The notes below the pieces were generated by a model that searched no databases, had not been told where the DNA came from, and saw nothing but the letters and a program-made list of their open reading frames with translations. Shown here piece by piece: positions 1,735 to 12,188 of a stretch of 64,000 bases of DNA. Position numbers and translations under genes: made by a program. Every line of letters begins with the position of its first letter. Position 1 is the first letter of the stretch. The stretch is from an uncultured delta proteobacterium. GTDB lineage: Bacteria; Desulfobacterota; Binatia; UBA9968. The stretch covers positions 183,671-247,670 of the forward strand of contig CAWJZV010000024.1 of the NCBI GenBank assembly GCA_963847445.1. Direction: 5' to 3'.

Positions 1735-1948
1735 GGTCCGGAGTTTCCGAATTGCCTTGACTCAAAGGTCGCCAATAAATTTGGCGGTCGGGCTCTTACG
1801 CTCCACTCACTAACCGATCTCTTCGCTGGTCCGCCGAACTCCGATAACACCAATCCCCATTTTCATCCACTGTGGGCGTGCGTAAGACCTTGAACCACTC
1901 TGTGGTAAATTTTTCCGGTCTTCAGTGGGATCACGACGCGGCGCGAAA

Positions 1949-3395
1949 TTAAGAACCGAAGGTTTCGCGGAGAATTTCTTTCACCGCGTCCGCCGAGATG
2001 TCGTCCAATCGCGCTGCGCCAGCAAGCGGCAGAGTTTGCGCAAACTGCCGCTGCCAGGCGACCGTGCCATTGTCGATGCGCACGACTCTCATTTCGACCA
2101 CTGCGCGCAAGGGCGACCGGCCATCGGTATGCCAACGGCGAATCTCCGATAGCCATAACCAGCCCGAGAGATTGGCGGTGCGAGCATTGGCCGCGGCGCT
2201 GGCGCCATCGAAGGGCAGGGATTGCAAGCGGCTATCCAGTTCCTCAGGGAAGGAAACGGTAATTTGCCGTTGTATCAGTTCGCTTCGGAGCGAGCCACGC
2301 AGCAAATCCATCACCGTGAGCCGGTAGTCGGGAGGAAGCTTGCCGGCGATCTCGGCCAAAGAGCGCAGTGGGTTGGTGCCGGGCAAACGCAGGTCAGAGT
2401 CCGTGCTGTTGCGCACCGGCGCCAGCCAGATCGCGCCCTGGCCAAGTAGCGATAAATCCAGCGGCGCTTGCGCGCGTTGCGCGGCGCAGCCGGAGACCAG
2501 CACAAACAGCAGCGCTAATAGGCAGGTGAGTCCCCGGCCTCGGCGCAAAATCGCTTGCCCAGCATAGACAGCGAAAATAACCACGCAGCCAAACGCCACA
2601 TCCGTCGGTCCCAGCGGCAGGTCCAGGCGCACGGATAGATAGAAGCCTAGGACCGCGATGAAAATACCGATCAACGACGAGAGCGACAGAAACGAACTCA
2701 TGCCGCGCGCCAAGGCGCGCGCCGCCAGGGGCGGTAAGACCATGAAACCGAAAACCAAGAGCGGCCCAGCCATGATGACGCCAATGGCAATGCTGAAGCC
2801 GCACAGAACGTACAACCAAAAACTCCACTGCGCGCTGCCGCCGGTGAGCAAGAAAGACAGATCGCGGTCGAAAGAGTTGAGTAAAAATTCCCGGCGAAAC
2901 AAAACCAGACCGACATATATCACGCCGTAGACGATCGCCAGCAGTTTCAATTCTTCCTTGGATAAGGAAATCACTTCGCCCTTGAGCAAATTGAGGATTT
3001 CCAGCTCACCGGCGGGGTTAAAGACAATGAACAAAATCGTCACTGCCGACGCCAGGGCGTAAGCCGCCGCAAGCCGGCCTTCCGGCGATCCAGTCGCGTG
3101 GCGATCAAGATAGGCCAGCAGTCCCATGCCGGCCAACGTGAACATCAGTGAACCGGCCATCGCCAATAGCCGTTCGCCGCCGCGTGCCGTGAGCGAAACC
3201 GAAGGCATGATGCAGCCAAAATGTGCAGGCCACGCCGCAGGCGGCGATTTGCGGCAGCGTCAAGCCGAGGAATACCCGCCGGCGCAGCATCAAGTGCGCG
3301 CCGACCAACGGACAAACCAATGCCAGGATGACGCTGCCGAGCAACGCCGGGAAAAGCAAGAACGACGGACTGAGAATTTCCCAAAAGCTCACCAT
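1949..3395 (-). CDS. Metal ABC transporter permease (ZnuB/MntB family) with C-terminal lipoprotein-like domain; frameshift ~3210
   Basis: [30 protein letters not shown]-terminus (ORF 3105-3479) joined to ABC-3 core ([31 protein letters not shown]) in ORF 1949-3208. Confidence 0.82.
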
Positions 3396-4071
3396 GGATG
3401 TTGCGCCACCGATCCTTCTTCCCACGCCACTTTGCCGCCGTCGACGCGCAAGATCTTTGTCGGTCACGCTGCGCACCATGCGTAGATCGTGGCTCGAAAA
3501 GAAATATCGCTTTGCCTTCGTCGCGATTGAGTTTGATCAAAAGCTCGCTGATCGCTTTCTGCGACTCCGGGTCGACGCCGGACAGCGGTTCGTCGAGAAT
3601 CAAAATCTTCGGGCCGACCATGAGTGCCCGGGCGATCAGCATGCGTTGACTCTGGCCGCCGGACAGCGAAAAGAAAGAGCGTCCCGCCAGATGACGATAA
3701 CCCGACCTGCTCGATCACATCGTGCAAGCGCTGTTTTTCCCGTCCCGGCAGACCCAGATAGGGCTTTAGCCGTCCAAGCCGCCCATCGCCACCACTTCGC
3801 GCGCGGTGATCGGAAAGGTCGAATCGAGCGCAGAACTCTGCGGCACGTAGCCGAACTCGCTGAGCGCGCAGTTGCGCACGAGCAAGCCGCTGATCGACGG
3901 GAAGAAATCCCAGAATCGTTCGAAGATCGTGGTCTTGCCGGAACCGTTAGGACCGGCCATCGCAATGAGTTCGCCGGCATGGATATCCAGATCGACGGCT
4001 TGCAATACCGGCGACACCGTCGTAACCGAGCGTTGCAGCGCGAAGAGAAATCAACGGGAGAGCTTACTCAC
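3389..4071 (-). CDS. Metal ABC transporter ATP-binding subunit (ZnuC/MntA family), several frameshifts
   Basis: Walker [27 protein letters not shown], Walker [13 protein letters not shown] in successive frames. Confidence 0.85.
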
Positions 4072-4120
4072 GCAAGCTCTCCCTCAAAATGATCGAGTTC
4101 AAGTTGCATTAGGATCTTTC

Positions 4121-5045
4121 CTAACTCTTTTTGAGCGCGCCTAGCAAACTCCTGAGGTTGTAATCGATAAATTTGATGTAGCTGTCGGTCTCCGCCGTTG
4201 CGCCGCCGGTGCTTTGCAGTCGCACCACTGCGGCGCCGGTCTGACCCGCGAGCTGCTTCGGATAGCGATCGCTTTGCGGCCCGTAGATGATCACCTGCAC
4301 TTTTTCCTGCTGCATTTTCTGGACAAGACCCACCAAATGATTCGGCGTTGGTTCAATGCCGGGTTTTAGTTCGATGCTACCGATCTGCTGAAGGCCAAAG
4401 CGACTCGCGAAATAGGCCCAATCGCTATGATAGGCGACGAACTTGGTTCCCTTCAGTGGCGCTGCCAGGGTTTGCCATCTTGCAATCGCTTTGTCCAACT
4501 CGGCCAAATAGGCGGTTAAGTTCTTCTCGAAGACCGCTTTATGTTGCGGAAAATTACGCGCCAAACCGTCGGCGATATTGCGCGCGATCACTTTACCGTT
4601 GAACGGATCGAGGTTGTAATGCGGATTGCCCTTGGGATGGACATCGTCCTTCGGCGCGGTCAACGCTTTTCGGCACGTCCAGCACGGTAATCCCCGCCGA
4701 ACAATCGACATGGCCGGGCTGGCCCGGCATGATTTTCGGGTTGCTCGCCGGCTCCAAAAGCGCCGGCAGCCAAGAAATTTCCAGATCCAACCCCATGGCG
4801 ACGAGTATATTGGCGCGGTTGAGCCTGGGAACAAAACTCGGCTTGACCGGCACCGCGTGCATGAACTCAACACCGCGGGTGAGACTCTCGACCTCGACCA
4901 ACTCCTTGCCGATCTGTTTGGTGATATCCGCCAGGTCGGGAATCGTCGTGACGACGCGAATCGGCTGCGCATGAGTGACGGCGACAGCGCCCCAGAGCAG
5001 ACTGAAAAATAATAAGCTGATAAAACTTCTTCGTTTCACTCGCAT
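4121..5045 (-). CDS. Metal ABC transporter substrate-binding protein (ZnuA/TroA family); frameshift ~4655
   Basis: Signal peptide, VVTTIPDLADITKQIG, HAVPVKPS, DVHPKGNPHYNLDP, YHSDWAYF, ELKPGIEPTPNH. Confidence 0.87.
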
Positions 5046-5074
5046 GATTTTGTCTCCTTCCTTGAGCCCCGCCA

Positions 5075-6327
5075 TTAGCGGTTGGCGAAGCCGTGCGAAT
5101 GGGCGCCCAACGTGGTCGTCCACTGCAGAAAAAATTGGTTACCGCCGTCGGCTCTTCGATTCGTTAACGTTGTCGTTGCCGTAGGTGTATTGGAAGCGCA
5201 GCCGGTTAAACTCGCTCAGCTTCCAGGTCAAGAAGGGTGAATAGCTCTGAGTCTTCTTACCCGGGCTGGCCAAACTCGGCGCATTGTCGTACAGAAACCC
5301 GGCCGACCACTCGACGGTTGAGCTTTGCCTCGACGTAGGCGTAGCCGCCAGGGGCAAACATGCGCCGGAACCCTGAGTCGCGCTCGACGCGCTCGCTGTT
5401 GCCAAACAGTTCGGCGCCAACCGTCACGCCTTGATGCAGGGTGCTGTCGAGCGGTTGGTAGCGATAGGTCAAGTCTAAGCCACTGAGTGTCCGGCTTCCG
5501 CCATGGGGATCGGACGGAATGCGAATCGAGGGCGTATAGGCCAAGCTCGTTCCCAGTTCGATGCTGTGATTATCGCTCAAATCGAAATAAGTATTGAGCC
5601 GCCCGAGATAGGTAAACCGGCTCCAGGCGCGTGACTTGGTATCGTCCAAGCGCTCGTTTTCCGCGCCGAGCTTATTGTAACCGCCAACGGTGCCGCGCAA
5701 GAAAAACGGCGTCGGGAAAAGATAGCTCAACTCCGCGCCATCGGCTTTCGATTCGCCGCCGACGATGCGCTCCAGCGAGAGCGGCGTATTCACAAAGGCA
5801 TATTCATGGGGATGGAACTTGGCCAGGCGGCCGAAGTCGGCGAAAAACCGCCCGCCGCGGGCTTGCAAATTCCACGGCAACGAGGTCGTCACCATCGCCG
5901 CCTCCTCGACCTCGACGCCGTCGCCGCTGCCGGTAAAAAACGCGTAGCCGCGCGCATAGGGATCGATGGAGGCCGCAATGCCGATCTCCGCCGAGCGGAA
6001 ATTGAACGTCCCGCCGGCTTTGCTGCGTTGCTCGGCAGTGGCGTCGATCGCCATGCCGATGGCGGGATTGAGCGCCGACGGCGCGCTTTGGACAGCTCTG
6101 ACTGACTTTTCGACTTGATCCACCCGTGTGGCCGTGGTGCCCTTCTCTTTTTCCAATTGGTCGATTCGCTGCAGCGCCTTTTGCAGCTGCTGCTCCATGC
6201 CCTTGACCAGAGAACGTAACGATTCGAGCTCGGAATTTTGTGCCAAGCCCCGCTCAGAAATGAATAATAAAACGGTAAATACGGCGGACGCCACCACTGA
6301 TGGTGTCCGCGAAGCGGATGAAACCAT
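5075..6327 (-). CDS. Outer-membrane beta-barrel of metal-uptake operons ('zinc-regulated TonB-dependent receptor'-like porin); frameshifts near 3' end
   Basis: Signal peptide + coiled coil, LNPAIG, IDPYARG, VEVEEA, GGRFFADFGR..HPH; reconstructed C-terminus SEFNRLRFQY...FLQWTTTLGAHSHGFANR*. Confidence 0.72.
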
Positions 6328-6355
6328 GATGAGCCTCCCTCACGAGACAACAAAA

Positions 6356-6387
6356 TCCCCTCCGCTCGGGCAAACCCGACGGAGGGA
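6356..6387 (-). promoter_or_regulatory. GC-rich hairpin between uORF and porin start (candidate attenuator / anti-SD)
   Basis: mRNA UCCCUCCG-UCGGG-UUUG-CCCGA-G-CGGAGGGGA followed by UUUUGUU; 5' arm complementary to the GAGGGAGG RBS. Confidence 0.5.
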
Positions 6388-6414
6388 AAACCAATATCGC
6401 TGTGGTTTGATGAA

Positions 6415-6711
6415 CTAGACTGGGAGTGAGAGAGGCGGTCCGCGGACAAATGGGCGCTGCGGCGCGGTGAAATTCCACTCGTCGCTCTGCGCTTCGAGCA
6501 AAATGGCAAATTGTGCGACTGGCAGGATGGCTGGCGCGGCATCGTGCACAACCAACTCCGTGCGCGCACCTTGCACGCAACTGCATTGGCTGCTCAGTTG
6601 CGACGACAGCGAAACATGAAAATGCAGCGGCAGGAAGAAAACAAACAGCAATGTCGCCGCACAGGCAAAACGGCCAAATGCGCGGGCTGTGCGAATTCGC
6701 AAAACCGGCAT
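6415..6711 (-). CDS. DUF2946-like leader protein with C-terminal RGPP arrest-type motif
   Basis: 98 aa: basic N-terminus, hydrophobic segment, HxH, CxC, Pro/Ala linker, RGPP 5 residues before stop; first gene of metal uptake operon. Confidence 0.75.
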   Translation of the reverse strand: MPVLRIRTARAFGRFACAATLLFVFFLPLHFHVSLSSQLSSQCSCVQGARTELVVHDAAPAILPVAQFAILLEAQSDEWNFTAPQRPFVRGPPLSLPV

Positions 6712-6717
6712 GAAAAG

Positions 6718-6746
6718 AACCTACTCAAAGGCCATGGGCTTGTCAA
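6718..6746 (-). promoter_or_regulatory. Sigma70-type promoter giving a probable leaderless transcript
   Basis: TTGACA-N17-TAGGTT then 6 nt to the ATG at 6711; no SD sequence. Confidence 0.65.
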
Positions 6747-6762
6747 TAAAAACTAAAAACGG

Positions 6763-6906
6763 TGCTCCATGCGGGCAGGCAACCAGGCACTCCAGGCCAC
6801 CCGCTGTTAGTTTGTCCGCCTGGACCCTCCAGCGAACTCTGGCCATTCCACCAGGCTCCGGGTTTATCAGTAGTCCATAGCCAGTCCCGCCAACGCCCCC
6901 GGAGTC
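6763..6906 (-). ncRNA. Structured ncRNA candidate, 6S RNA-like
   Basis: Ends pair (CTCC/GGAG), A/C-rich central bubble (TGATAAACCC / ACAAACTAACAG), inner GCCTGG/CCAGGC stem, GGAGC and AGCGGGT motifs, followed by T tracts; folded by eye only. Confidence 0.42.
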
Positions 6907-6963
6907 AGCTCCTAACTAGCTGGTTTTTGGATTGTCTGTTACTCGGATTTTATTGATCAACCG

Positions 6964-6991
6964 GTAAACCGACCGCGGCTGGCGCCGTCTA
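6964..6991 (+). promoter_or_regulatory. ECF sigma-type promoter
   Basis: GTAAAC-N16-CGTCTA about 40 nt upstream of the first ATG of the ECF operon; fits the AAC...CGT ECF consensus. Confidence 0.65.
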
Positions 6992-7032
6992 ACCGGTACA
7001 GAACGTAAAAACTGGCTTAGGAGGCATTCGAT

Positions 7033-7428
7033 ATGAATACTAAATCGGTCATGGGCACCGGATTGCTCGTGGCGACTTTGGCGCTGGCAGGTTCGCCAGT
7101 AATTGCCGCGGAAACCAAGGTCACCCCGGTGGAGAAAACCGAGTTGAGACAGGACCGCAAGGAAATCCGCCAAGACCGCCGGGAGATCAAGAGCGACCGC
7201 CGAGAGTTGCGCAAGGACCGCAAAGAGCTGCGCTCTGACCGCCGCGAGTTACGCCGCGATCTCAAGCACGGCGCTAGCAAAGAAGAAATCGCCCAAGACC
7301 GCGCAGAGATCGCCCAGGGCAAGGCAGAGATTAAAGGCGACAGGAAGGAATTGAAACAGGACCGCGTAGAACGGCGCCAGGATCGCAAAGAGCTGCGAGC
7401 CGATCGCCGCGACGCCGTAAAGAACTAA
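7033..7428 (+). CDS. Secreted highly charged heptad-repeat (DRxE[LI]R) protein
   Basis: AGGAGG RBS, Sec signal peptide, about a dozen DR[KR]E[LI][RK]x repeats. Confidence 0.8.
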   Translation: MNTKSVMGTGLLVATLALAGSPVIAAETKVTPVEKTELRQDRKEIRQDRREIKSDRRELRKDRKELRSDRRELRRDLKHGASKEEIAQDRAEIAQGKAEIKGDRKELKQDRVERRQDRKELRADRRDAVKN

Positions 7429-7441
7429 CCGGGAGCCGACC

Positions 7442-8107
7442 ATGGCATGCCTTCAAGCGGCGGCAGAACTTGAATTCTTCCGCCGCCCCCTCCACACTGA
7501 TGCGAGCGCGCGTGAATCGACGAAAGGCAGGACCAGCCAATTGGCGAACTCTGGGGATGAGGAGTTGGTGGCGTTGGCCCAACAGGGCGACCGCCGGGCG
7601 TTCGAAGAACTGATCGAGCGCCACAAGCAGAAGGCCTACCATATCGCCTTTGGCTTCGCCCGCGATCGCGAGGAGGCCAAGGATCTGTCGCAAGACGCCT
7701 TCTTGAAGGCGTTTATTTATTTGAAGAACTTTGACGGCCGTTCGAGTTTTTACACTTGGTTTTATCGCATCGTCGTCAACGTCTGTCTCGACTACAAGCG
7801 GCGCGCCAAGCGCACCTCCGCCGGCGAGTTTGACGAGACCATCGAGAGTCAAATGGAACCGTCCCATAATCCGGCTCGGCCGCTGGCGCCGGAGCAGCAT
7901 GTGCAGGCCAGGCAGCTCTCGCGAAAAGTCGACGCCGCCCTGCAAAAACTGCCGGCGAAACAGCGCATGGCATTTATTTTGAAGAACAATCAAGGACTAT
8001 CGATTAAAGAAATCGCCGCGACCATGGAAACCGCCGAGGGCACCGTGAAAGTGCATTTGCACCGCGCGGTCACCACGCTACGGCAAAGCTTGGCGGAATT
8101 GGTCTAG
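7442..8107 (+). CDS. ECF RNA polymerase sigma-70 factor
   Basis: AQQGDRRAFEELIERH, DLSQDAFLKA, SSFYTWFYRIVVN (region 2), EIAATMETAEGTVKVHLHRA (region 4). Confidence 0.95.
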   Translation: MACLQAAAELEFFRRPLHTDASARESTKGRTSQLANSGDEELVALAQQGDRRAFEELIERHKQKAYHIAFGFARDREEAKDLSQDAFLKAFIYLKNFDGRSSFYTWFYRIVVNVCLDYKRRAKRTSAGEFDETIESQMEPSHNPARPLAPEQHVQARQLSRKVDAALQKLPAKQRMAFILKNNQGLSIKEIAATMETAEGTVKVHLHRAVTTLRQSLAELV

Positions 8108-8115
8108 GAGGAATT

Positions 8116-8634
8116 ATGACGGAGCGACTCAACCCGGCAGCAAGCGCCTGCGCAGACTTGGAAGCGGACCTCGTGCTGCTTCATTACGGCGACTTGGACG
8201 GCGCCGAGCGCGCGCGGCTCCAAGCCCATGCCGCCAATTGCGCCGGCTGCTCGAGCTATTTGACCGAACTCGCAACCCTGCTGCCGCTGGCGGACACAAC
8301 CGACACGCCGCCGCAAGAGTTCTGGATGAACTATAACCGTGAGTTGCGCCACAAGATCGACGCCGCGGTTGAAAACAAATCTTGGTGGCAGAATTTCACG
8401 GCGATTTTCAGACCTGGCTACCTGCCCGCTCTGGCCACCGCCGCGGTGGTGGTCTTGGCGCTGACCTTCACTCTCGGTGGCGGCCTGTGGTCCGCCAAGA
8501 ACGGCACGCCGGACGTTGAGTTGACTGAAGCGCTCCCGGTGGCGGAGAACTTGGAATTCTTCCGCGCCATGGATGTATTGGATGAATTGGATCTGCTCGA
8601 AGTCATGGACAGCCAAGGCAACAACGCTGCCTAG
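8116..8634 (+). CDS. Zinc-binding (zf-HC2/ZAS) transmembrane anti-sigma factor
   Basis: HAANCAGC (HxxxCxxC), one TM helix, short acidic periplasmic tail; directly after sigma. Confidence 0.88.
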   Translation: MTERLNPAASACADLEADLVLLHYGDLDGAERARLQAHAANCAGCSSYLTELATLLPLADTTDTPPQEFWMNYNRELRHKIDAAVENKSWWQNFTAIFRPGYLPALATAAVVVLALTFTLGGGLWSAKNGTPDVELTEALPVAENLEFFRAMDVLDELDLLEVMDSQGNNAA

Positions 8635-8646
8635 GGAAACCGGCCC

Positions 8647-8898
8647 ATGAATCACCGCAACTGGTTGCCTCTGACGCTATTGCTGGCGACCGCGCAGCCG
8701 GCACTGGGGGCGACCAAGGAAGCCCAGCTGCCGGACAAGGAGATGCTCCAGATCATGGAGTTTTTGCGCGAAATGGAAATGGTCAAGCAGATGGAAATGA
8801 TGCGCGACTTAGACCATGTCGAGTCGGTCGGCGAACAGGCGAAAAATAGCGTGCCGCCAAAACCATCGCCGGTGAAAAAGAAGGAGACCCCCAAGTGA
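8647..8898 (+). CDS. Small secreted Met-rich protein resembling anti-sigma periplasmic tail
   Basis: Signal peptide; IMEFLREMEMVKQMEMMRDLD; GTGA overlap with next gene. Confidence 0.72.
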   Translation: MNHRNWLPLTLLLATAQPALGATKEAQLPDKEMLQIMEFLREMEMVKQMEMMRDLDHVESVGEQAKNSVPPKPSPVKKKETPK

Positions 8899-9533
8899 AG
8901 CTCATTGGCAAAGCAGCGATCGCACTTGGGCTTGCGGCATACCTGCTAACTCCGCGGGCATCGAGCCAAGCGGCTCAACCCAGTGCGATGGCCGCGCAAA
9001 GCGAACAGGAAGCCGGCGAGCGCTGGGAGAAACTGTCGCCGCAGGAAAAATCGGAAATGCGCGAGCGCTACCAGCGCTGGAAAAATCTTGATCCAAAGGA
9101 AAAAGCCGACCTGCAGGACAAGTTCGACAACTGGCGCAAACTCCCGTCGGACGAGCGGGCTGCCGCACGGAGAAATTTCGAGCGCTTTCAGAAACTCCCG
9201 CCGGAGGATCGCGAGCGCTTGCAAAAACGCTGGGAAGAGTATCGCAAGCTGTCGCCCGAACGGCGTGAAGAGATCAAACGGCGCATGCAGGCGTTGCGCG
9301 ACATGTCACCAGAGAAGCGCCAGGAACTGCGCCAAAAGCTGTTGGAGCGGCGCCAGCAGCGCGTCGAAGAGAAGCTAGAGCGGCGCGAGCAGAGGCGCGA
9401 GCATTTCGACAAGATGCCGCTCCAAGAAAAGCAGGAGCTAAGGGAAAAACTTCGCGAGCGCAAAGAACAGAGCAGGTTTGAAGAAAAGCGGCGCTTCCGC
9501 GACAAGTCGCAAGGCGGCAGAGACAAGGAGTAG
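8895..9533 (+). CDS. DUF3106-like periplasmic helical-repeat protein
   Basis: Signal peptide and repeated [WF]xxL[SP]PE[EK][RK] units. Confidence 0.8.
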   Translation: MKLIGKAAIALGLAAYLLTPRASSQAAQPSAMAAQSEQEAGERWEKLSPQEKSEMRERYQRWKNLDPKEKADLQDKFDNWRKLPSDERAAARRNFERFQKLPPEDRERLQKRWEEYRKLSPERREEIKRRMQALRDMSPEKRQELRQKLLERRQQRVEEKLERREQRREHFDKMPLQEKQELREKLRERKEQSRFEEKRRFRDKSQGGRDKE

Positions 9534-9536
9534 CCT

Positions 9537-10968
9537 TTGAACACGCCCCTCAGCCAAGAGCAAAAGATTATCCACTTTCTAAACCGCACGAGCTTCGGGC
9601 CAACTCAAGTGGAAATCCAAAGAGCCGGCCGCATCGGCACCCGCGCCTATCTTGACGAACAGCTCACGCCGGAACGGATTGCGGACAATGGCGTCGACGA
9701 AAAAATCGCGGGGTTGAAAACCATGCGGCTTAACAGCCGCGAGCTGATCGAACTCTATCCACCGCCAAGACTACAAAGACAGCAAGCCAACCAGCAGGGC
9801 GGCATGGCCATGGAGTCCATGGACGGCCCGCGCGTCGTCATCCTCGAACTGCAACAGGCCAAGCTTTTGCGCGCGCTCTACAGCAACCGTCAGCTCTACG
9901 AAGTCATGGTGGATTTCTGGGGCAATCATTTCAACATCAATATCGCCAAGGGCGCCAACCGCTGGCTGACCACTGCCTACGATCGCGACACGATCAGGCC
10001 GTTGGCTCTAGGCAAATTTAAGGATTTGTTGATGGCGACGGCAAAAAGCCCGGCGATGCTTTTTTATTTGGACAACTGGATGAGCGCCAGCCCGGATTCG
10101 CCCGGCGCCAAAATGGGCGGGCCGAACAATCGGCGCCGCGGCTTGAACGAAAACTACGCCCGCGAGCTCATGGAATTGCATACTCTCGGCGTCGACGGCG
10201 GTTACACGCCAAAAAGATGTTCAGGAGGTCGCCCGCTGCTTCACCGGCTGGACGATCGTCCAGCCGCAGGGCCAGGGCGTGTTTCGTTTCGAGCCGCGCA
10301 TTCATGACAACGGCGAAAAGACCGTCCTCGGCCAGCGCATTCCGCGCGGCGGCGGCATGGACGATGGTCTGCGCGTCATTGATATACTAGTCAAGCATCC
10401 GTCAACGGCGCACGTTCATCGCGACCAAGTTGGTCCGCCGCTTCATCGCCGACGACCCGCCGCGCGGCGATGGTCAACAAAGCCGCCGAAGCGTTTCGCC
10501 AGAGCGACGGCGATATTCCGACGGTAATGCGCGCCATCGTCGACGCGCCGGAGTTTTTCGCCGGCGAGCTCTATCAGGCCAAGATTAAAAATCCCTTCGA
10601 GTTCGTCGCCAGCGCCCTGCGGGTCACCGGCAGCGACGCCCAGGTGACGCACCAACTGTTGCGTTACTTGGGTCGCATGGGCGAACCGCTATTCCTGGCC
10701 CAAGCGCCCACCGGCTATCCCGACATCGCGGCTTCTTGGATCAGCGCCGATATGTTGCTGACGCGGATGAACTTCGTCGCCGATCTGGTCGCCAACCGTT
10801 TGCCGGGAGCCAAAGTGCCGGTAGAAACGTTGAAGAATCGCGACGGGCTCGATCCGCCGCATCGCGCCGGACTCGCTATCGCCGGCAACCCAAGCCGCCC
10901 TGGCGGAAACCGAGGGCAATCAAGCCATCGCGCTGCTGTTAGCGGCGCCGGAATTTCAAAGGAGATAG
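9537..10968 (+). CDS. DUF1800 family protein (several frameshifts)
   Basis: LNRTSFGP, QLYEVMVDFWGNHFN, SPAMLFYLDN, GLNENYARELMELHTLG, KIKNPFEF, reconstructed end AAPEFQRR*. Confidence 0.87.
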
Positions 10969-10970
10969 AA

Positions 10971-12188
10971 ATGAACTCCTCGCGCCGCCGATTTTTACAG
11001 TCCACCGGTTTGGGATTTCTCGCCCTGGGCTTGCCGCCAGCGTTTCTCGTGCGCATTGCGCAAGCACAAGCGGCAAAGAACAAATCTCTCGTCGTGGTGT
11101 TTCAACGCGGCGCCATGGATGGCTTGAACGTGGTCATTCCGTTCAAGGATCCGGCCTATTACCAACTGCGCCCGAACATCGCTGTGGCTGAGCCGGGAAT
11201 GGGCGAAGAACGGGCCATCGATCTCGATGGCTTTTACGCGCTCCATCCGGCGTTGGCGCCGCTCAAGAGCATCTACGACAAAGGTCATCTGGGTTTTATT
11301 CAGGCAACCGGTTCGCCCGATAACACGCGTTCCCATTTCGACGCCCAGGACTACATGGAAATCGGCACGCCGGGCATTAAAAGCACGCCGGACGGCTGGC
11401 TCAACCGCTGTTTGCTGGAAAACAAGAAAAGTGAATCGCACTTTCGCGGCGTCGCCGTCACCGCGCAACTGCCGCGCATGTTGGCCGGCCGCGCACCGGC
11501 GCTTACGCTGTCGTCCATTGAGGAGTTTCGCTTCCGCAATCAAGCCTTGGGCACGGCTTTGCAGAAGCTCTACGCCAACACCCGGGACAGCGAACTCCGC
11601 TTCGGCGCCGAGAGTCTCTTTGGCGCGATGACCGAGCTCAAACGACTCGATGCCAAAATCCCGCTCTCGGCGGAACGTTACCCGGCGGGTCGATTTGGCA
11701 CAGGTCTGGCGCAGATCGCCCGCTTGATCAAAGCCGATGTCGGTTTGGAACTCGCTTTCACCGAAATCGGCGGCTGGGACACCCACGCCAACGAAGGTGG
11801 CGCCACCGGCCAGCTGGCCAACCGGCTGAAAGAATTGGGTGAAGCACTTGCGGCGTTTTACCGCGACCTCGGCGACCGGATGGACGATGTCGTCCTGCTG
11901 ACGATGTCCGAGTTCGGCCGCACCGCGCGGGAAAATGGCAATCGCGGCACCGACCACGGCCACGCCAACGTCATGTTCGCCATCGGTGGCAAAGTGCGCG
12001 GCGGCAAAGTCTACGGCCGTTGGCCCGGCCTGGCGCCGGAAATGCTTAATGAAGGCAGAGACCTCGCTCTAACCACGGACTTCCGCACGGTCTGCGGCGA
12101 AGTGCTGACACGCCATCTTGGCCAGAAAGACATGAGCAAAATCTTCCCAGGTTTTAGCGCGAGCGCAAAATTGGGACTACTAACTTAG
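10971..12188 (+). CDS. DUF1501 family protein with Tat signal
   Basis: SRRRFLQ twin-arginine signal, FQRGAMDGLN, RSHFDAQD, GGWDTH, SEFGRT, GTDHGH. Confidence 0.9.
   Translation: MNSSRRRFLQSTGLGFLALGLPPAFLVRIAQAQAAKNKSLVVVFQRGAMDGLNVVIPFKDPAYYQLRPNIAVAEPGMGEERAIDLDGFYALHPALAPLKSIYDKGHLGFIQATGSPDNTRSHFDAQDYMEIGTPGIKSTPDGWLNRCLLENKKSESHFRGVAVTAQLPRMLAGRAPALTLSSIEEFRFRNQALGTALQKLYANTRDSELRFGAESLFGAMTELKRLDAKIPLSAERYPAGRFGTGLAQIARLIKADVGLELAFTEIGGWDTHANEGGATGQLANRLKELGEALAAFYRDLGDRMDDVVLLTMSEFGRTARENGNRGTDHGHANVMFAIGGKVRGGKVYGRWPGLAPEMLNEGRDLALTTDFRTVCGEVLTRHLGQKDMSKIFPGFSASAKLGLLT

Follow-up and report, generated by a model that had tools for sequence, protein, structure and literature searches.

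The closest described system is CruR (Bp2923) of Bordetella pertussis, a DUF2946 (PF11162) protein for which a CXXC motif, a RAPP motif at a spacing of 45 residues, relief of the RAPP arrest by copper, and a Rho-dependent output are described (Roy et al. 2022, PMC9426467). In CutF of Rhodobacter capsulatus, stalling is proposed to melt a stem-loop by which the downstream gene's ribosome-binding site (RBS) is shielded (PMC9973294; bioRxiv 10.1101/2025.02.05.636593), and its authors regard some CutF-like clusters as probably not copper-specific (HupE/UreJ, Ni/Co). Among arrest motifs, the RAPP and RGPP cores are described as the most robust and as EF-P-refractory (Fujiwara et al. 2025, PMC12992588), and the catalog of RAPP/RGPP upstream open reading frames (uORFs) in that study contains metal-related downstream classes (TonB receptors, YcnI, PCuAC, and PepSY), with a "carbohydrate porin" and one "zinc-regulated TonB-dependent receptor" listed in the supplement. 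In an engineered fusion of the ADR1a zinc finger with SecM, Zn2+-dependent folding is reported to release the arrest only when the tether has a defined length (Nilsson et al. 2015, PMC4571824).

The window (the whole 64,000-nucleotide stretch of DNA that was analyzed) carries a uORF that an earlier note, made from the sequence alone, had proposed as a candidate ribosome-arrest metal sensor at the head of an uptake operon. Every sequence feature named in that note was found at its position on the minus strand (table 1), and the product of 98 amino acids (MPVLRIR...RFACAATLLFVFFLPLHFH...QCSC...VRGPPLSLPV, followed by the stop) contains the hydrophobic segment, LHFH, QCSC, the linker, and RGPP near the stop as described there. 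The signal is predicted from hydropathy, with a Kyte–Doolittle maximum of 2.41 over 15 residues (residues 15–29), and AlphaFold2 places one helix at residues 2–26 and coil in the remainder, a model that is uninformative on the metal site. It is highly probable that the uORF is an arrest-type regulatory leader of some kind. With moderate confidence, we favor the reading that its product is a regulatory nascent peptide rather than a conventional protein: a ribosome-arrest leader that senses a metal, most probably zinc, and governs a zinc-uptake operon once transcription is under way.

Table 1. Features of the uORF locus and the downstream operon (positions within the window).
Feature	Position	Strand	Basis or remark
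-35 hexamer TTGACA	6741..6746	-	no variation among 42 anchored loci (2 bits at each position)
-10-like hexamer TAGGTT	6718..6723	-	17-nt spacer to -35; TAG in frame
uORF, 98 codons plus TAG, probable leaderless arrest-peptide gene	6415..6711	-	
Predicted hydrophobic signal/anchor segment, residues 15–29, preceded by Arg-rich residues 5–14	6625..6669	-	hydropathy
LPLHFH, invariant Pro28/His30/His32 (HxH, putative ligand pair)	6616..6633	-	family alignment
QCSC, invariant Cys43/Cys45 (CxC, putative ligand pair)	6577..6588	-	family alignment
44-residue linker, fixed length, sequence poorly conserved, proposed molecular ruler	6445..6576	-	family spacing
RGPP, candidate arrest motif, R90–P93	6433..6444	-	family motif counts, synonymous codon variation
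Anti-SD arm, GACC plus GCCUCUCUCAC, codons of G91–P92 to first base of L96	6426..6440	-	folds, covariation
Inner hairpin, UUCCCUCCGUCGGG / CCCGAGCGGAGGGGA	6356..6388	-	fold; in the model-guided alignment, both partners vary for 10 of 10 pairs
U-rich tract behind the hairpin	6344..6355	-	sequence
SD arm, GUGAGGGAGGC	6333..6343	-	SD core GGGAGG 6339–6334, 6 nt ahead of the porin ATG
Outer-membrane porin-fold gene: signal peptide, coiled coil, beta-barrel	5139..6327	-	frameshifted near 5314
ZnuA-family substrate-binding protein	4121..5123	-	PF01297 on both pieces; frameshifted near 4646
ABC ATPase, ZnuC-like	3145..4017	-	several frameshifted pieces; intact ortholog matches PF00005
ABC-3 permease, ZnuB/AztB-like, C-terminal extension	1949..3479	-	in two frames

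Judged by sequence comparison, the uORF is a real, conserved gene family. Homologs are present in 22 of 41 related genomes (the unpublished genome G005 is counted in this tally), 33 matches came from a word-based search, and a profile search of 1.84 billion representatives identified 139 clusters. Conservation of RGPP, HxH, and CxC in orthologs had been named as a test of the proposal, and it came out in its favor: PxHxH, CxC, and RxPP occur together in 123 of the 139 cluster representatives, which were taken without selection for the motifs, and most of the other 16 appear truncated or frameshifted. The arrest motif among the 123 is RAPP (98), RGPP (20), RSPP (three), RDPP (one), or LGPP (one), and the spacing from CxC to the Arg of the motif is 44 residues in 118, 45 in four, and 42 in one. 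Beyond PP, the chain continues for five residues in 72 members of the family and for two to four residues in 45. Residues H30, H32, C43, C45, P92, and P93 were invariant in the first alignment (34 sequences), and the Arg, Gly/Ala, and Pro codons of the motif change synonymously while the residues are constant. Scans of the uORF peptide and 150 relatives against Pfam and NCBIfam assigned no family. A search of genome G000 for small ORFs with a hydrophobic N-terminus and an R[AG]PP ending returned 32 crude candidates, among which the uORF alone was convincing; the RAPP and AAPP counts of that six-frame search take in non-coding frames and were disregarded.

The uORF extends from an ATG at 6711–6709, which lacks a purine-rich SD, to a TAG at 6417–6415, and six nucleotides (cttttc) separate the -10 hexamer from the ATG. 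Since the TAG of the -10 hexamer is an in-frame stop, a start further upstream is impossible. The arrangement that had been pointed out, TTGACA-N17-TAGGTT 6 nt ahead of an SD-less ATG, is present, and 39 of 44 distinct loci share its geometry (TTGAC[AT]-N16-19-TAnnnn-N4-9-[AG]TG, in frame), with a gap of 6–7 nt in 33 of the 39; the start lies 26–28 codons from PxHxH across the loci of the family. This conserved geometry fits a leaderless uORF mRNA, while the use of GTG for 18 of the 39 proposed leaderless starts counts against the favored reading. TAGGTT matches TATAAT at three of six positions and is a weak -10, and a simple consensus promoter scan did not flag the uORF promoter; the promoter call rests on conservation. 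Over the 60 nt that precede the -35, conservation is ~0 bits, in agreement with the observation in the earlier note that no Zur or Fur box is obvious. Two Fur-family genes are carried by the genome, so a Zur may exist. A divergent gene pair for an ECF sigma factor and a ZAS anti-sigma factor is conserved beside 28 of 37 uORF loci and could supply transcriptional control; the uORF promoter itself, with its perfect TTGACA and TAnnnT-type -10, looks unlike an ECF-type motif.

The porin gene starts (ATG at 6327) after an intergenic distance of 87 nt, close to the earlier estimate of ~85 nt. A structural model of its ortholog resembles OmpT, OprO/OprP, AlgE, and DcaP, and the nearest named atlas clusters are Porin_O_P. 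For the downstream genes of the family, the best NCBIfam matches are AztC, ZnuA, AztB, and ZrgA; AztC and ZnuA are the best for the ZnuA-family ortholog, and both ABC components score below the cut-offs. With ABC scores below the NCBIfam cut-offs and a ZnuA family that also carries Mn and Fe, the metal need not be zinc. The single-nucleotide frameshifts in the downstream operon of the window are most likely assembly errors. Synteny of the homologs, one of the checks that had been proposed, points to the same type of operon throughout: zinc-type uptake genes follow the uORF at each of the 41 loci for which enough downstream sequence exists. A porin-like gene directly downstream, followed by ZnuA, is found in 36 of the 41, and the longer loci of this porin type add ZnuC, ZnuB, ZIP, an M16 peptidase, or CDF; the remaining loci contain MerC-like, DUF3299, ZrgA, and MacB-type ABC transporter genes. 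We consider it likely that the sensed metal is zinc.

Contigs from four sequencing runs, which allow no reading of 5' ends, strand, or expression level, include RNA-library pieces of 148–223 nt at 6335–6557 (X15) and at 6377–6524 and 6549–6699 (X17). Elsewhere in 1900–6950 there are only RNA-library fragments of 18–21 nt, an absence that is uninformative because the runs were found by words from 5900–6900, their depth is ~2, and RNA libraries may contain DNA.

The anti-SD arm, which a ribosome stalled at PP would cover, is predicted to pair with the SD of the porin gene. The computed fold has an MFE of -54.7 kcal/mol (z -2.81), and its centroid retains the helix GCCUCUCUCAC:GUGAGGGAGGC. Across the family, the MFE structure pairs the SD core with the segment from RxPP to the stop in 32 of 37 loci. 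Composition-matched shuffling of the tails leaves this pairing in 22.5 ± 2.0 of 37, and substituted upstream coding windows give 142 of 442. Pyrimidine composition alone thus yields much of the SD pairing, with shuffled tails pairing in ~22 of 37 loci. The duplex between tail and SD has a mean of -18.0 kcal/mol for cognate and -14.9 kcal/mol for non-cognate combinations, and none of 20,000 permutations was equally strong. RNAalifold predicted the same helices for six close loci and returned no pairs when all 32 porin-type loci were aligned with MAFFT alone, as their intergenic regions are too divergent for sequence alignment. A covariance-model alignment of 27 distinct sequences, which is fitted to the structure and therefore biased towards it, had 84.2% paired cells versus 70.8% in shuffled and 48–57% in slid controls; 26 of its 30 pairs vary on both sides, a number reached by none of 500 shuffles. 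Blocking the ribosome footprint in the computed fold costs ~15 kcal/mol and abolishes the tail–SD helix.

The tails also differ in composition from the sequence ahead of them, with a pyrimidine content of 76.6% versus 57.9% upstream and anti-SD-like words in 34 of 42 tails versus 9% of upstream windows. In five of the 37 loci, which mostly have two-residue tails ahead of MerC-like genes, the SD is masked by sequence outside the tail. No Rfam element was found in 6200–7100. Overall, a conserved, covarying helix appears to join the codons behind RGPP to the SD of the porin gene, which bears out the post-transcriptional link that had been suggested, and SD unmasking is probably, if by no means certainly, the main output.

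Stalling, the identity of the metal, the polarity, and the compartment in which the metal is sensed are inferred, and under the favored reading the steps would be the following. Given the conserved geometry, a sigma-70-type promoter would produce a leaderless mRNA on which the first ribosome would trail the polymerase. The Arg-rich and hydrophobic N-terminus would target the nascent chain to the membrane and place PxHxH at the end of the helix, with CxC 13–15 residues further on. Published work on RAPP/RGPP peptides suggests that the ribosome would stall at R(G/A)PP, where Pro92 would occupy the P site and Pro93 the A site. The stalled ribosome would cover the pyrimidine-rich codons 6440–6426, which are otherwise predicted to pair with the porin SD region (6343–6333), and this occupation of the anti-SD codons in the computed helix would free the SD and allow translation of the porin and ZnuABC. 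By analogy with CruR and the SecM/zinc finger fusion, metal would close a His2Cys2 site that is held at the fixed 44-residue distance, 47–49 residues from the peptidyl-transferase center, and the resulting pull would release the arrest. Translation would then terminate, the helix would re-form and switch the uptake genes off, and the C-rich tail may become open to Rho. The polarity in this scheme, with the stall as the ON state and metal as the releasing signal, seems reasonably probable.

The same arrest peptide might instead act by transcription termination as in CruR, with SD masking as a secondary effect. A stalled ribosome would shield a C-rich, rut-like stretch or hold off the hairpin and its U-tract, and after release Rho or the hairpin would halt RNA polymerase before the porin gene. 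The region has a C>G bubble (6471–6372, C/G ratio ~2), base fractions of 0.34 for C and 0.19 for G throughout the family in the tail plus 40 nt, and a GC-rich covarying hairpin followed by a U-rich tract, all of which agree with termination, as do the Rho-dependent precedent of CruR and the five of 37 loci in which masking of the SD is not due to the tail. The strength, specificity, and covariation of the tail–SD helix in most loci argue for SD unmasking. The inner hairpin with its U-tract was passed over by a terminator scan, the U-tracts are inconsistent among homologs, and a ribosome stalled at RGPP would end ~35 nt short of the hairpin and so could not prevent it from folding. An RNA-library contig that crosses the hairpin to 6335 also speaks weakly against termination, since such libraries may contain DNA. 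Taken together, termination as the main output is rather unlikely.

There is a small chance that the uORF encodes a mature membrane-anchored or periplasmic protein that serves the porin/ZnuABC system as a metal-binding accessory or chaperone, and that RxPP and the helix tune stoichiometry by translational coupling without any sensing of metal. Invariant His and Cys residues with a hydrophobic anchor would suit such a protein, and the uORF always comes first in zinc-uptake operons, as accessory genes can. Its 44-residue linker, conserved in length and variable in sequence, and the lack of a fold past the N-terminal helix in the AlphaFold2 model are less easily explained in this way; proteomes are reported to avoid RAPP and RGPP strongly except where these serve arrest (PMC12992588), and a motif 2–5 residues from the stop with an anti-SD tail is hard to square with a structural protein. 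It is similarly improbable that the peptide senses metal with the opposite polarity, or senses another metal, as in CutF, so that metal bound at the periplasmic face would lengthen the stall, and the metal itself or a toxic competitor (such as Cd, Co, Ni, or Cu) would induce expression. CutF is described as combining copper-induced stalling with a sensor that is exported and an RBS-shielding stem-loop, some contexts of the family include MerC-like and CDF genes, and ZnuA-family proteins are not zinc-specific. Against this, the robust default stalling reported for RAPP/RGPP is in keeping with an arrest that a ligand relieves, as in CruR, and the operons encode uptake functions (porin, ABC importer, ZIP, and ZrgA), whose induction by their own substrate would be counter-productive.

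To our knowledge, metal-sensing arrest peptides have been demonstrated experimentally for copper only (CruR and CutF), and we know of no described zinc riboswitch. A search of the literature found no zinc example of a metal-sensing arrest peptide. We tentatively suggest, as an idea that may well prove wrong, that the uORF product is the first natural zinc-sensing nascent peptide, in which Zn(II) closes a His2Cys2 site that a 44-residue ruler holds at the ribosome or translocon exit, and the closure mechanically undoes an RGPP/RAPP arrest and so directly gates translation of porin, ZnuABC, and ZIP from a constitutive leaderless promoter, doing the job of Zur here as a functional equivalent of a zinc riboswitch. 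A zinc-linked family would carry the principle to a second essential metal, here with another ligand set (HxH and CxC), a ruler of 44 residues that hardly varies, a probably leaderless start, and a helix of its own post-arrest codons that would mask the SD. It would explain the regulation of zinc uptake in an uncultured lineage of soil and sediment and would offer a compact, mutable system for ligand-driven arrest release (ruler length, sensing compartment, and force). The peptide and the intergenic region are short enough for the PURE system or for a reporter in E. coli, with no need to grow the organism itself.

The comparison with CruR drawn in the earlier note agrees with the published account (PMC9426467). 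Both are small uORFs that head a metal-uptake operon and have an N-terminal export signal (here predicted), a Cys pair, a motif of the RAPP type shortly ahead of the stop, a product with little structure, and an intergenic region that is long and structured, and the spacing from Cys motif to Arg is 45 residues in CruR and 44 in 118 of 123 members of the uORF family. The proposed logic, in which the stall keeps uptake ON and metal would free the ribosome, is shared by analogy. The suggestion of a variant with a different ligand set holds, as the family does not match PF11162 and its contexts are of the zinc rather than the copper type. The uORF family has HxH and CxC (PxHxH with ECSC, ECAC, QCSC, and others) where CruR has an invariant CXXC, and precedes porin, ZnuABC, ZIP, and ZrgA genes instead of a copper TonB receptor and PepSY; none of the 41 loci heads a copper-homeostasis operon (TonB receptor, PepSY, PCuAC, or YcnI), all being of the zinc type. 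Further differences are the probably leaderless start, the predicted output (SD unmasking versus Rho-dependent termination), and the lineage (Binatota-like MAGs versus Proteobacteria). The HMM comparison with PF11162 that had been called for places the uORF outside the DUF2946 family of Pfam: the protein of the window gave nothing at E<=0.1, a six-frame scan at E<=10 gave no match at the locus, and a single one of 150 family members matched (E 0.11). ESM-atlas look-alike clusters carry the name DUF2946 (score 0.94, 179 shared features), which we take as a lead only. For an alignment with DUF2946, PF11162 was found in two of 151 genomes of the phylum; translation around each of the two hits in one frame gave sequence of low complexity or unrelated sequence, and both were dropped.

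By the features used to select CutF-like proteins (Ozturk et al. 2023, PMC9973294), the uORF product is shorter than 150 residues, has PP within its last 15 residues and a signal-like N-terminus (by hydropathy), and precedes a gene on the same strand at less than 1000 nt. The proposed stall-driven opening of a structure that shields the downstream RBS would be a further similarity. CutF is reported to differ in polarity and purpose, as copper prolongs the stall and a detoxifying oxidase is induced, and in its CxxxC and PPP-type motif that needs EF-P; the words "zinc," "ZnuA," and "porin" do not occur in the main text and two small supplement files of the paper on CutF-like proteins.

The uORF product also resembles ApdA, ApdP, ApcA, and SecM in its small size, its C-terminal R(A/G)PP (RGPP at residues 90–93 of 98), its predicted localization signal, and its coding position upstream of the putatively regulated gene on the same strand (87 nt away, with a computed tail–SD helix that a ribosome could open). 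Peptides of this type are described as monitors of Sec or YidC activity or as uncharacterized, unlike the metal sensing proposed here; the main text of the catalog (PMC12992588) does not contain the word "zinc," and the family motifs FFLPLH[FLV]H, KECSC, and KECAC were not found in seven of its supplement files and part of an eighth. The ADR1a–SecM fusion is artificial and is described as folding inside the tunnel at L ~25 (PMC4571824), whereas the putative site of the uORF product would lie 47–62 residues from the peptidyl-transferase center and thus outside the tunnel, possibly across the membrane. By analogy, the zinc-dependent release of that fusion makes a fixed ruler with a His2Cys2 site physically plausible.

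The candidate metal-sensing arrest leader is a real finding, and the regulatory element as a whole is compact (roughly 400 nt). The earlier note's description of the promoter, the ATG lacking a Shine–Dalgarno sequence (SD), the 98-aa product, its ligand motifs, RGPP and the spacings is accurate, and all of these features were found in the window (table). The TAG within the -10 hexamer is an in-frame stop upstream of the uORF ATG, and no purine-rich SD precedes this ATG in the window sequence. The promoter was not called by a consensus promoter scan, since TAGGTT shares just 3 of its 6 bases with TATAAT.

Features of the uORF, its RNA element and the divergent neighbours
Feature	Position	Strand	Remark
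-35 TTGACA	6746-6741	minus	17 nt before -10
-10 TAGGTT	6723-6718	minus	6 nt before uORF ATG
uORF ATG	6711	minus
uORF	6711-6415	minus	98-aa peptide, ends TAG
Peptide N-terminus			Arg-rich start
Hydrophobic stretch	residues 15-29		15 residues, KD 2.41
LPLHFH	residues 27-32
QCSC	residues 42-45
Linker			44 residues between QCSC and RGPP
RGPP	residues 90-93; 6444-6433	minus	then five residues and TAG
GCCUCUCUCAC	6436-6426	minus	last base of P92 codon to first base of L96
Inner hairpin	6388-6356	minus	kept in centroid
GUGAGGGAGGC	6343-6333	minus	includes porin SD
Porin-like gene ATG	6327	minus	GGGAGG before it; 87 nt downstream of uORF stop
131-aa K/E/R-repeat protein	7033-7428	plus
ECF sigma factor	7442-8107	plus
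zf-HC2 (ZAS-type) anti-sigma factor	8116-8634	plus
DUF3106 gene	8895-9533	plus
DUF1800 gene	9537-10307	plus
ORF joining DUF1800 C-terminal part and DUF1501	10470-12188	plus

A six-frame search matched the peptide in 22 of 41 related genomes, a tally that takes in one unpublished genome (G005). Within the genus, 18 of 24 further genomes have a match; the figure is 3 of 5 in a second family and 0 of 11 in a third. A word-based search returned 33 metagenomic proteins, mostly of exactly 98 aa, none of which carries a Pfam domain; the few named by their source are called "hypothetical protein". Searching 1.84 billion representatives with a profile yielded 139 clusters, and P[LFIM]HxH, CxC and RxPP are all present in 123 of the 139 cluster representatives, in whose selection the motifs were not used; conservation of HxH, CxC and an RxPP-type motif among homologues, on which the earlier reading hinged, held. 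The remaining 16 mostly look truncated or frameshifted. Among the 123 full-motif members, the arrest motif is RAPP (98), RGPP (20), RSPP (3), RDPP (1) or LGPP (1). The distance from CxC to Arg is a 44-residue ruler (44 residues in 118 members, 45 in four, 42 in one) spanned by a poorly conserved linker sequence, the first His and the first Cys lie 13–15 residues apart, and the tail after PP measures 5 aa in 72 and 2–4 aa in 45 members. The R, G/A, P and P codons vary synonymously across loci, which argues that selection acts on the translated product. A motif-selected alignment (A2), with columns invariant by construction, was used as folding input only. Atlas taxa point to Candidatus Binatia/Binatota-type MAGs as the source of the family loci.

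The proposed leaderless start, an in-frame ATG (21 loci) or GTG (18 loci), lies 4–9 nt beyond TTGAC[AT]-N16-19-TAnnnn in 39 of the 44 distinct loci. The gap from the -10 to the start is 6–7 nt in 33 of these loci, and 26–28 codons lead from the start to PxHxH. The same TTGACA promoter is visible in three of the five exceptional loci, of which L007 and L059 appear frameshifted and L012 has a shorter gap to the start. TTGACA is invariant across loci and the 60 nt on its 5' side carry ~0 bits, so that no family-wide operator is visible, in keeping with the earlier remark that no Zur/Fur box was obvious.

The reading of a porin and ZnuABC-type system downstream of the uORF is borne out by synteny. 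Where 1.2 kb or more of downstream sequence is available (41 distinct loci), a porin-like gene directly follows the uORF in 36 loci, ZnuA comes next wherever the sequence suffices, and an ABC ATPase, an ABC-3 permease and often a ZIP, M16 peptidase or CDF gene follow. At the other loci the uORF heads MerC-like, DUF3299, ZrgA and MacB-type ABC genes, or else a short gene with a second uORF-porin unit behind it. The top NCBIfam matches of the downstream genes (AztC and ZnuA, AztB, ZrgA) all fall under the curated cut-offs. For the product of the first downstream gene, AlphaFold2 modelling of an orthologue (pLDDT 67, pTM 0.61) gave a beta-barrel together with a signal helix and a coiled coil; the model resembles OmpT, MOMP, OprO/OprP, AlgE and DcaP at a TM of about 0.45–0.5, and "porin" is therefore valid at the fold level. 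Overall, the gene context points to zinc as the metal concerned.

Orthologues of the ABC-3 permease (window 1949-3479 minus; L016:6836-8284) are ~482 aa long; the permease domain stops near residue 277 and a ~200-aa extension starts with a lipobox-like LVSGC, an unusual fusion for a ZnuB-type permease. One relative (L014, G014:C4:72000-91900) contains three uORF copies within 10 kb, the first ahead of a truncated porin-like ORF, the second ahead of MerC-like, DUF3299, ZrgA and MacB-type ABC genes, and the third ahead of a complete porin/ZnuABC/ZIP/CDF operon. The K/E/R-repeat, ECF sigma, anti-sigma and DUF3106 genes are divergent from the uORF, and an ECF sigma gene lies divergently upstream of the uORF in 28 of the 37 distinct loci whose upstream sequence is long enough. 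A zinc-binding anti-sigma factor adjoining a zinc-uptake operon could constitute a second regulatory layer.

The porin, ZnuA, ZnuC and ZnuB genes of the window (1949-6327 minus) are each broken across frames by 1-nt frameshifts. Comparison of the window with Illumina-derived contigs of two other metagenomes revealed single-base indels, those at 5314 and 4646 in both runs and those at 5150, 4110, 4089, 4063, 4010, 3775, 3695, 3501 and 3456 in one run. Such indels, for example those at 5314 and 4646, fall at or near the frame break points, and none of the differences listed lies inside the uORF. Orthologous operons are mostly intact and many related records are labelled as long-read MAGs. The operon frameshifts are probably long-read assembly errors rather than pseudogenes, with the uORF unaffected, and the DUF1800/DUF1501 gene pair (9537-12188 plus) may hold a further frameshift artefact.

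The region 6460-6310 folds at -54.7 kcal/mol (z -2.81), and its centroid pairs the tail segment GCCUCUCUCAC with GUGAGGGAGGC. The comparison across loci covers 37 distinct ones whose downstream start is confident; L019, L020, L025, L056 and L007, where the start was not settable, were left out beforehand. In 32 of the 37, the partner of the SD core in the MFE structure is the segment from RxPP to the stop, and the SD is paired with some partner in all 37. Composition-matched shuffled tails paired with the SD in 22.5 ± 2.0 of 37 loci (maximum 26 in 30 rounds), and upstream CDS windows replacing the tail did so in 142 of 442 cases. The mean tail-SD duplex is -18.0 kcal/mol for cognate versus -14.9 kcal/mol for non-cognate pairs (0 of 20,000 permutations as strong). 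Tails contain 76.6% pyrimidines versus 57.9% in upstream CDS, and 34 of 42 tails contain anti-SD-like words, compared with 9% of upstream windows. In the five loci where the tail is not the partner, a local hairpin masks the SD instead; these mostly have 2-aa tails, ~120-nt intergenic regions and MerC-like genes downstream.

With all 32 porin-type loci aligned by sequence, RNAalifold predicted 0 pairs; restricted to six close loci, it returned the inner hairpin and an outer helix in which the Arg-Gly codons also pair with the start region of the porin gene. These six loci served to build a covariance model, which placed the element at the expected position in 29 matches representing 27 distinct sequences; two of the 29 were weak matches (E 0.62). 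In the resulting alignment, which is fitted to the model and hence biased towards its structure, 84.2% of cells are paired versus 70.8% after shuffling and 48–57% after sliding, and 26 of 30 pairs have changes on both sides (7/9 in the covarying tail-SD helix, 10/10 in the inner hairpin); 0 of 500 shuffles attained any of these measures. In many homologues the arms of the inner hairpin are anti-SD-like and SD-like (CCCUCC...GGAGGG) and a U-rich tract (6344-6355 minus in the window) often lies 3' of it, making the two a candidate pause or terminator, a decoy SD or a mere spacer.

In the mechanism considered most likely, a robust stall at R(G/A)PP would be the default state, and the stalled ribosome would cover the anti-SD codons, leaving the porin SD free and the uptake operon translated. 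In the computed fold, masking the nucleotides that a ribosome would occupy with Pro92 in its P site abolishes the helix at a cost of ~15 kcal/mol. Metal binding by HxH and CxC would release the arrest, allowing the helix to re-form and shut the operon. At the stall, CxC is 47–49 and HxH 60–62 residues from the peptidyl-transferase centre, which places the ligands outside the tunnel; if the N-terminus is a signal-anchor, they would sit at the translocon or past it. The analysis demonstrates that each part is conserved, along with the ruler, the covarying helix and the synteny, from which stalling, ligand, polarity and compartment are inferred. The output may instead run through transcription termination, a reading backed by a C>G bubble at 6471-6372 and by the inner hairpin with its U-tract. 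The polarity may also be opposite, as in CutF, or the peptide may act as a mature accessory protein.

The comparative evidence supports the earlier interpretation well, including the view of a variant of the CruR type. According to excerpts of the respective papers, the CruR uORF, of DUF2946, encodes an export signal, CXXC and, three residues ahead of the stop, RAPP, and copper relieves its arrest, leading to Rho-dependent termination (PMC9426467); the exported CutF senses copper, and when it stalls, the stem-loop shielding the RBS is melted (PMC9973294; bioRxiv 2025.02.05.636593). Unlike CruR, the present family is outside Pfam DUF2946 in a PF11162 search, although its protein-language-model neighbours are named DUF2946 (a lead only). 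The peptide passes the simple filters that define "CutF-like" proteins, some clusters of which lie near Ni/Co genes, as set out in part of the same CutF paper (PMC9973294). Fujiwara et al., in the portion cited here, report that RAPP and RGPP are the most robust of the cores and refractory to EF-P, and that they are overrepresented close to the C-terminus of small secreted proteins encoded ahead of metal-related genes (PMC12992588). Neither the Fujiwara (PMC12992588) nor the CutF (PMC9973294) paper mentions "zinc" in its main text, the family motifs were not found in those of the Fujiwara supplementary files that were searched (PMC12992588), and the literature searched yielded no zinc-sensing arrest peptide. 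An excerpt of Nilsson et al. describes a nascent zinc finger whose zinc-dependent folding, at a tether length that is sharply defined, frees SecM arrest (PMC4571824). Judged by sequence comparison, the uORF would belong to the known kind of metal-sensing arrest uORFs, within which its family is distinct and undescribed, tied to zinc uptake and marked by a ligand set and an RNA logic of its own.
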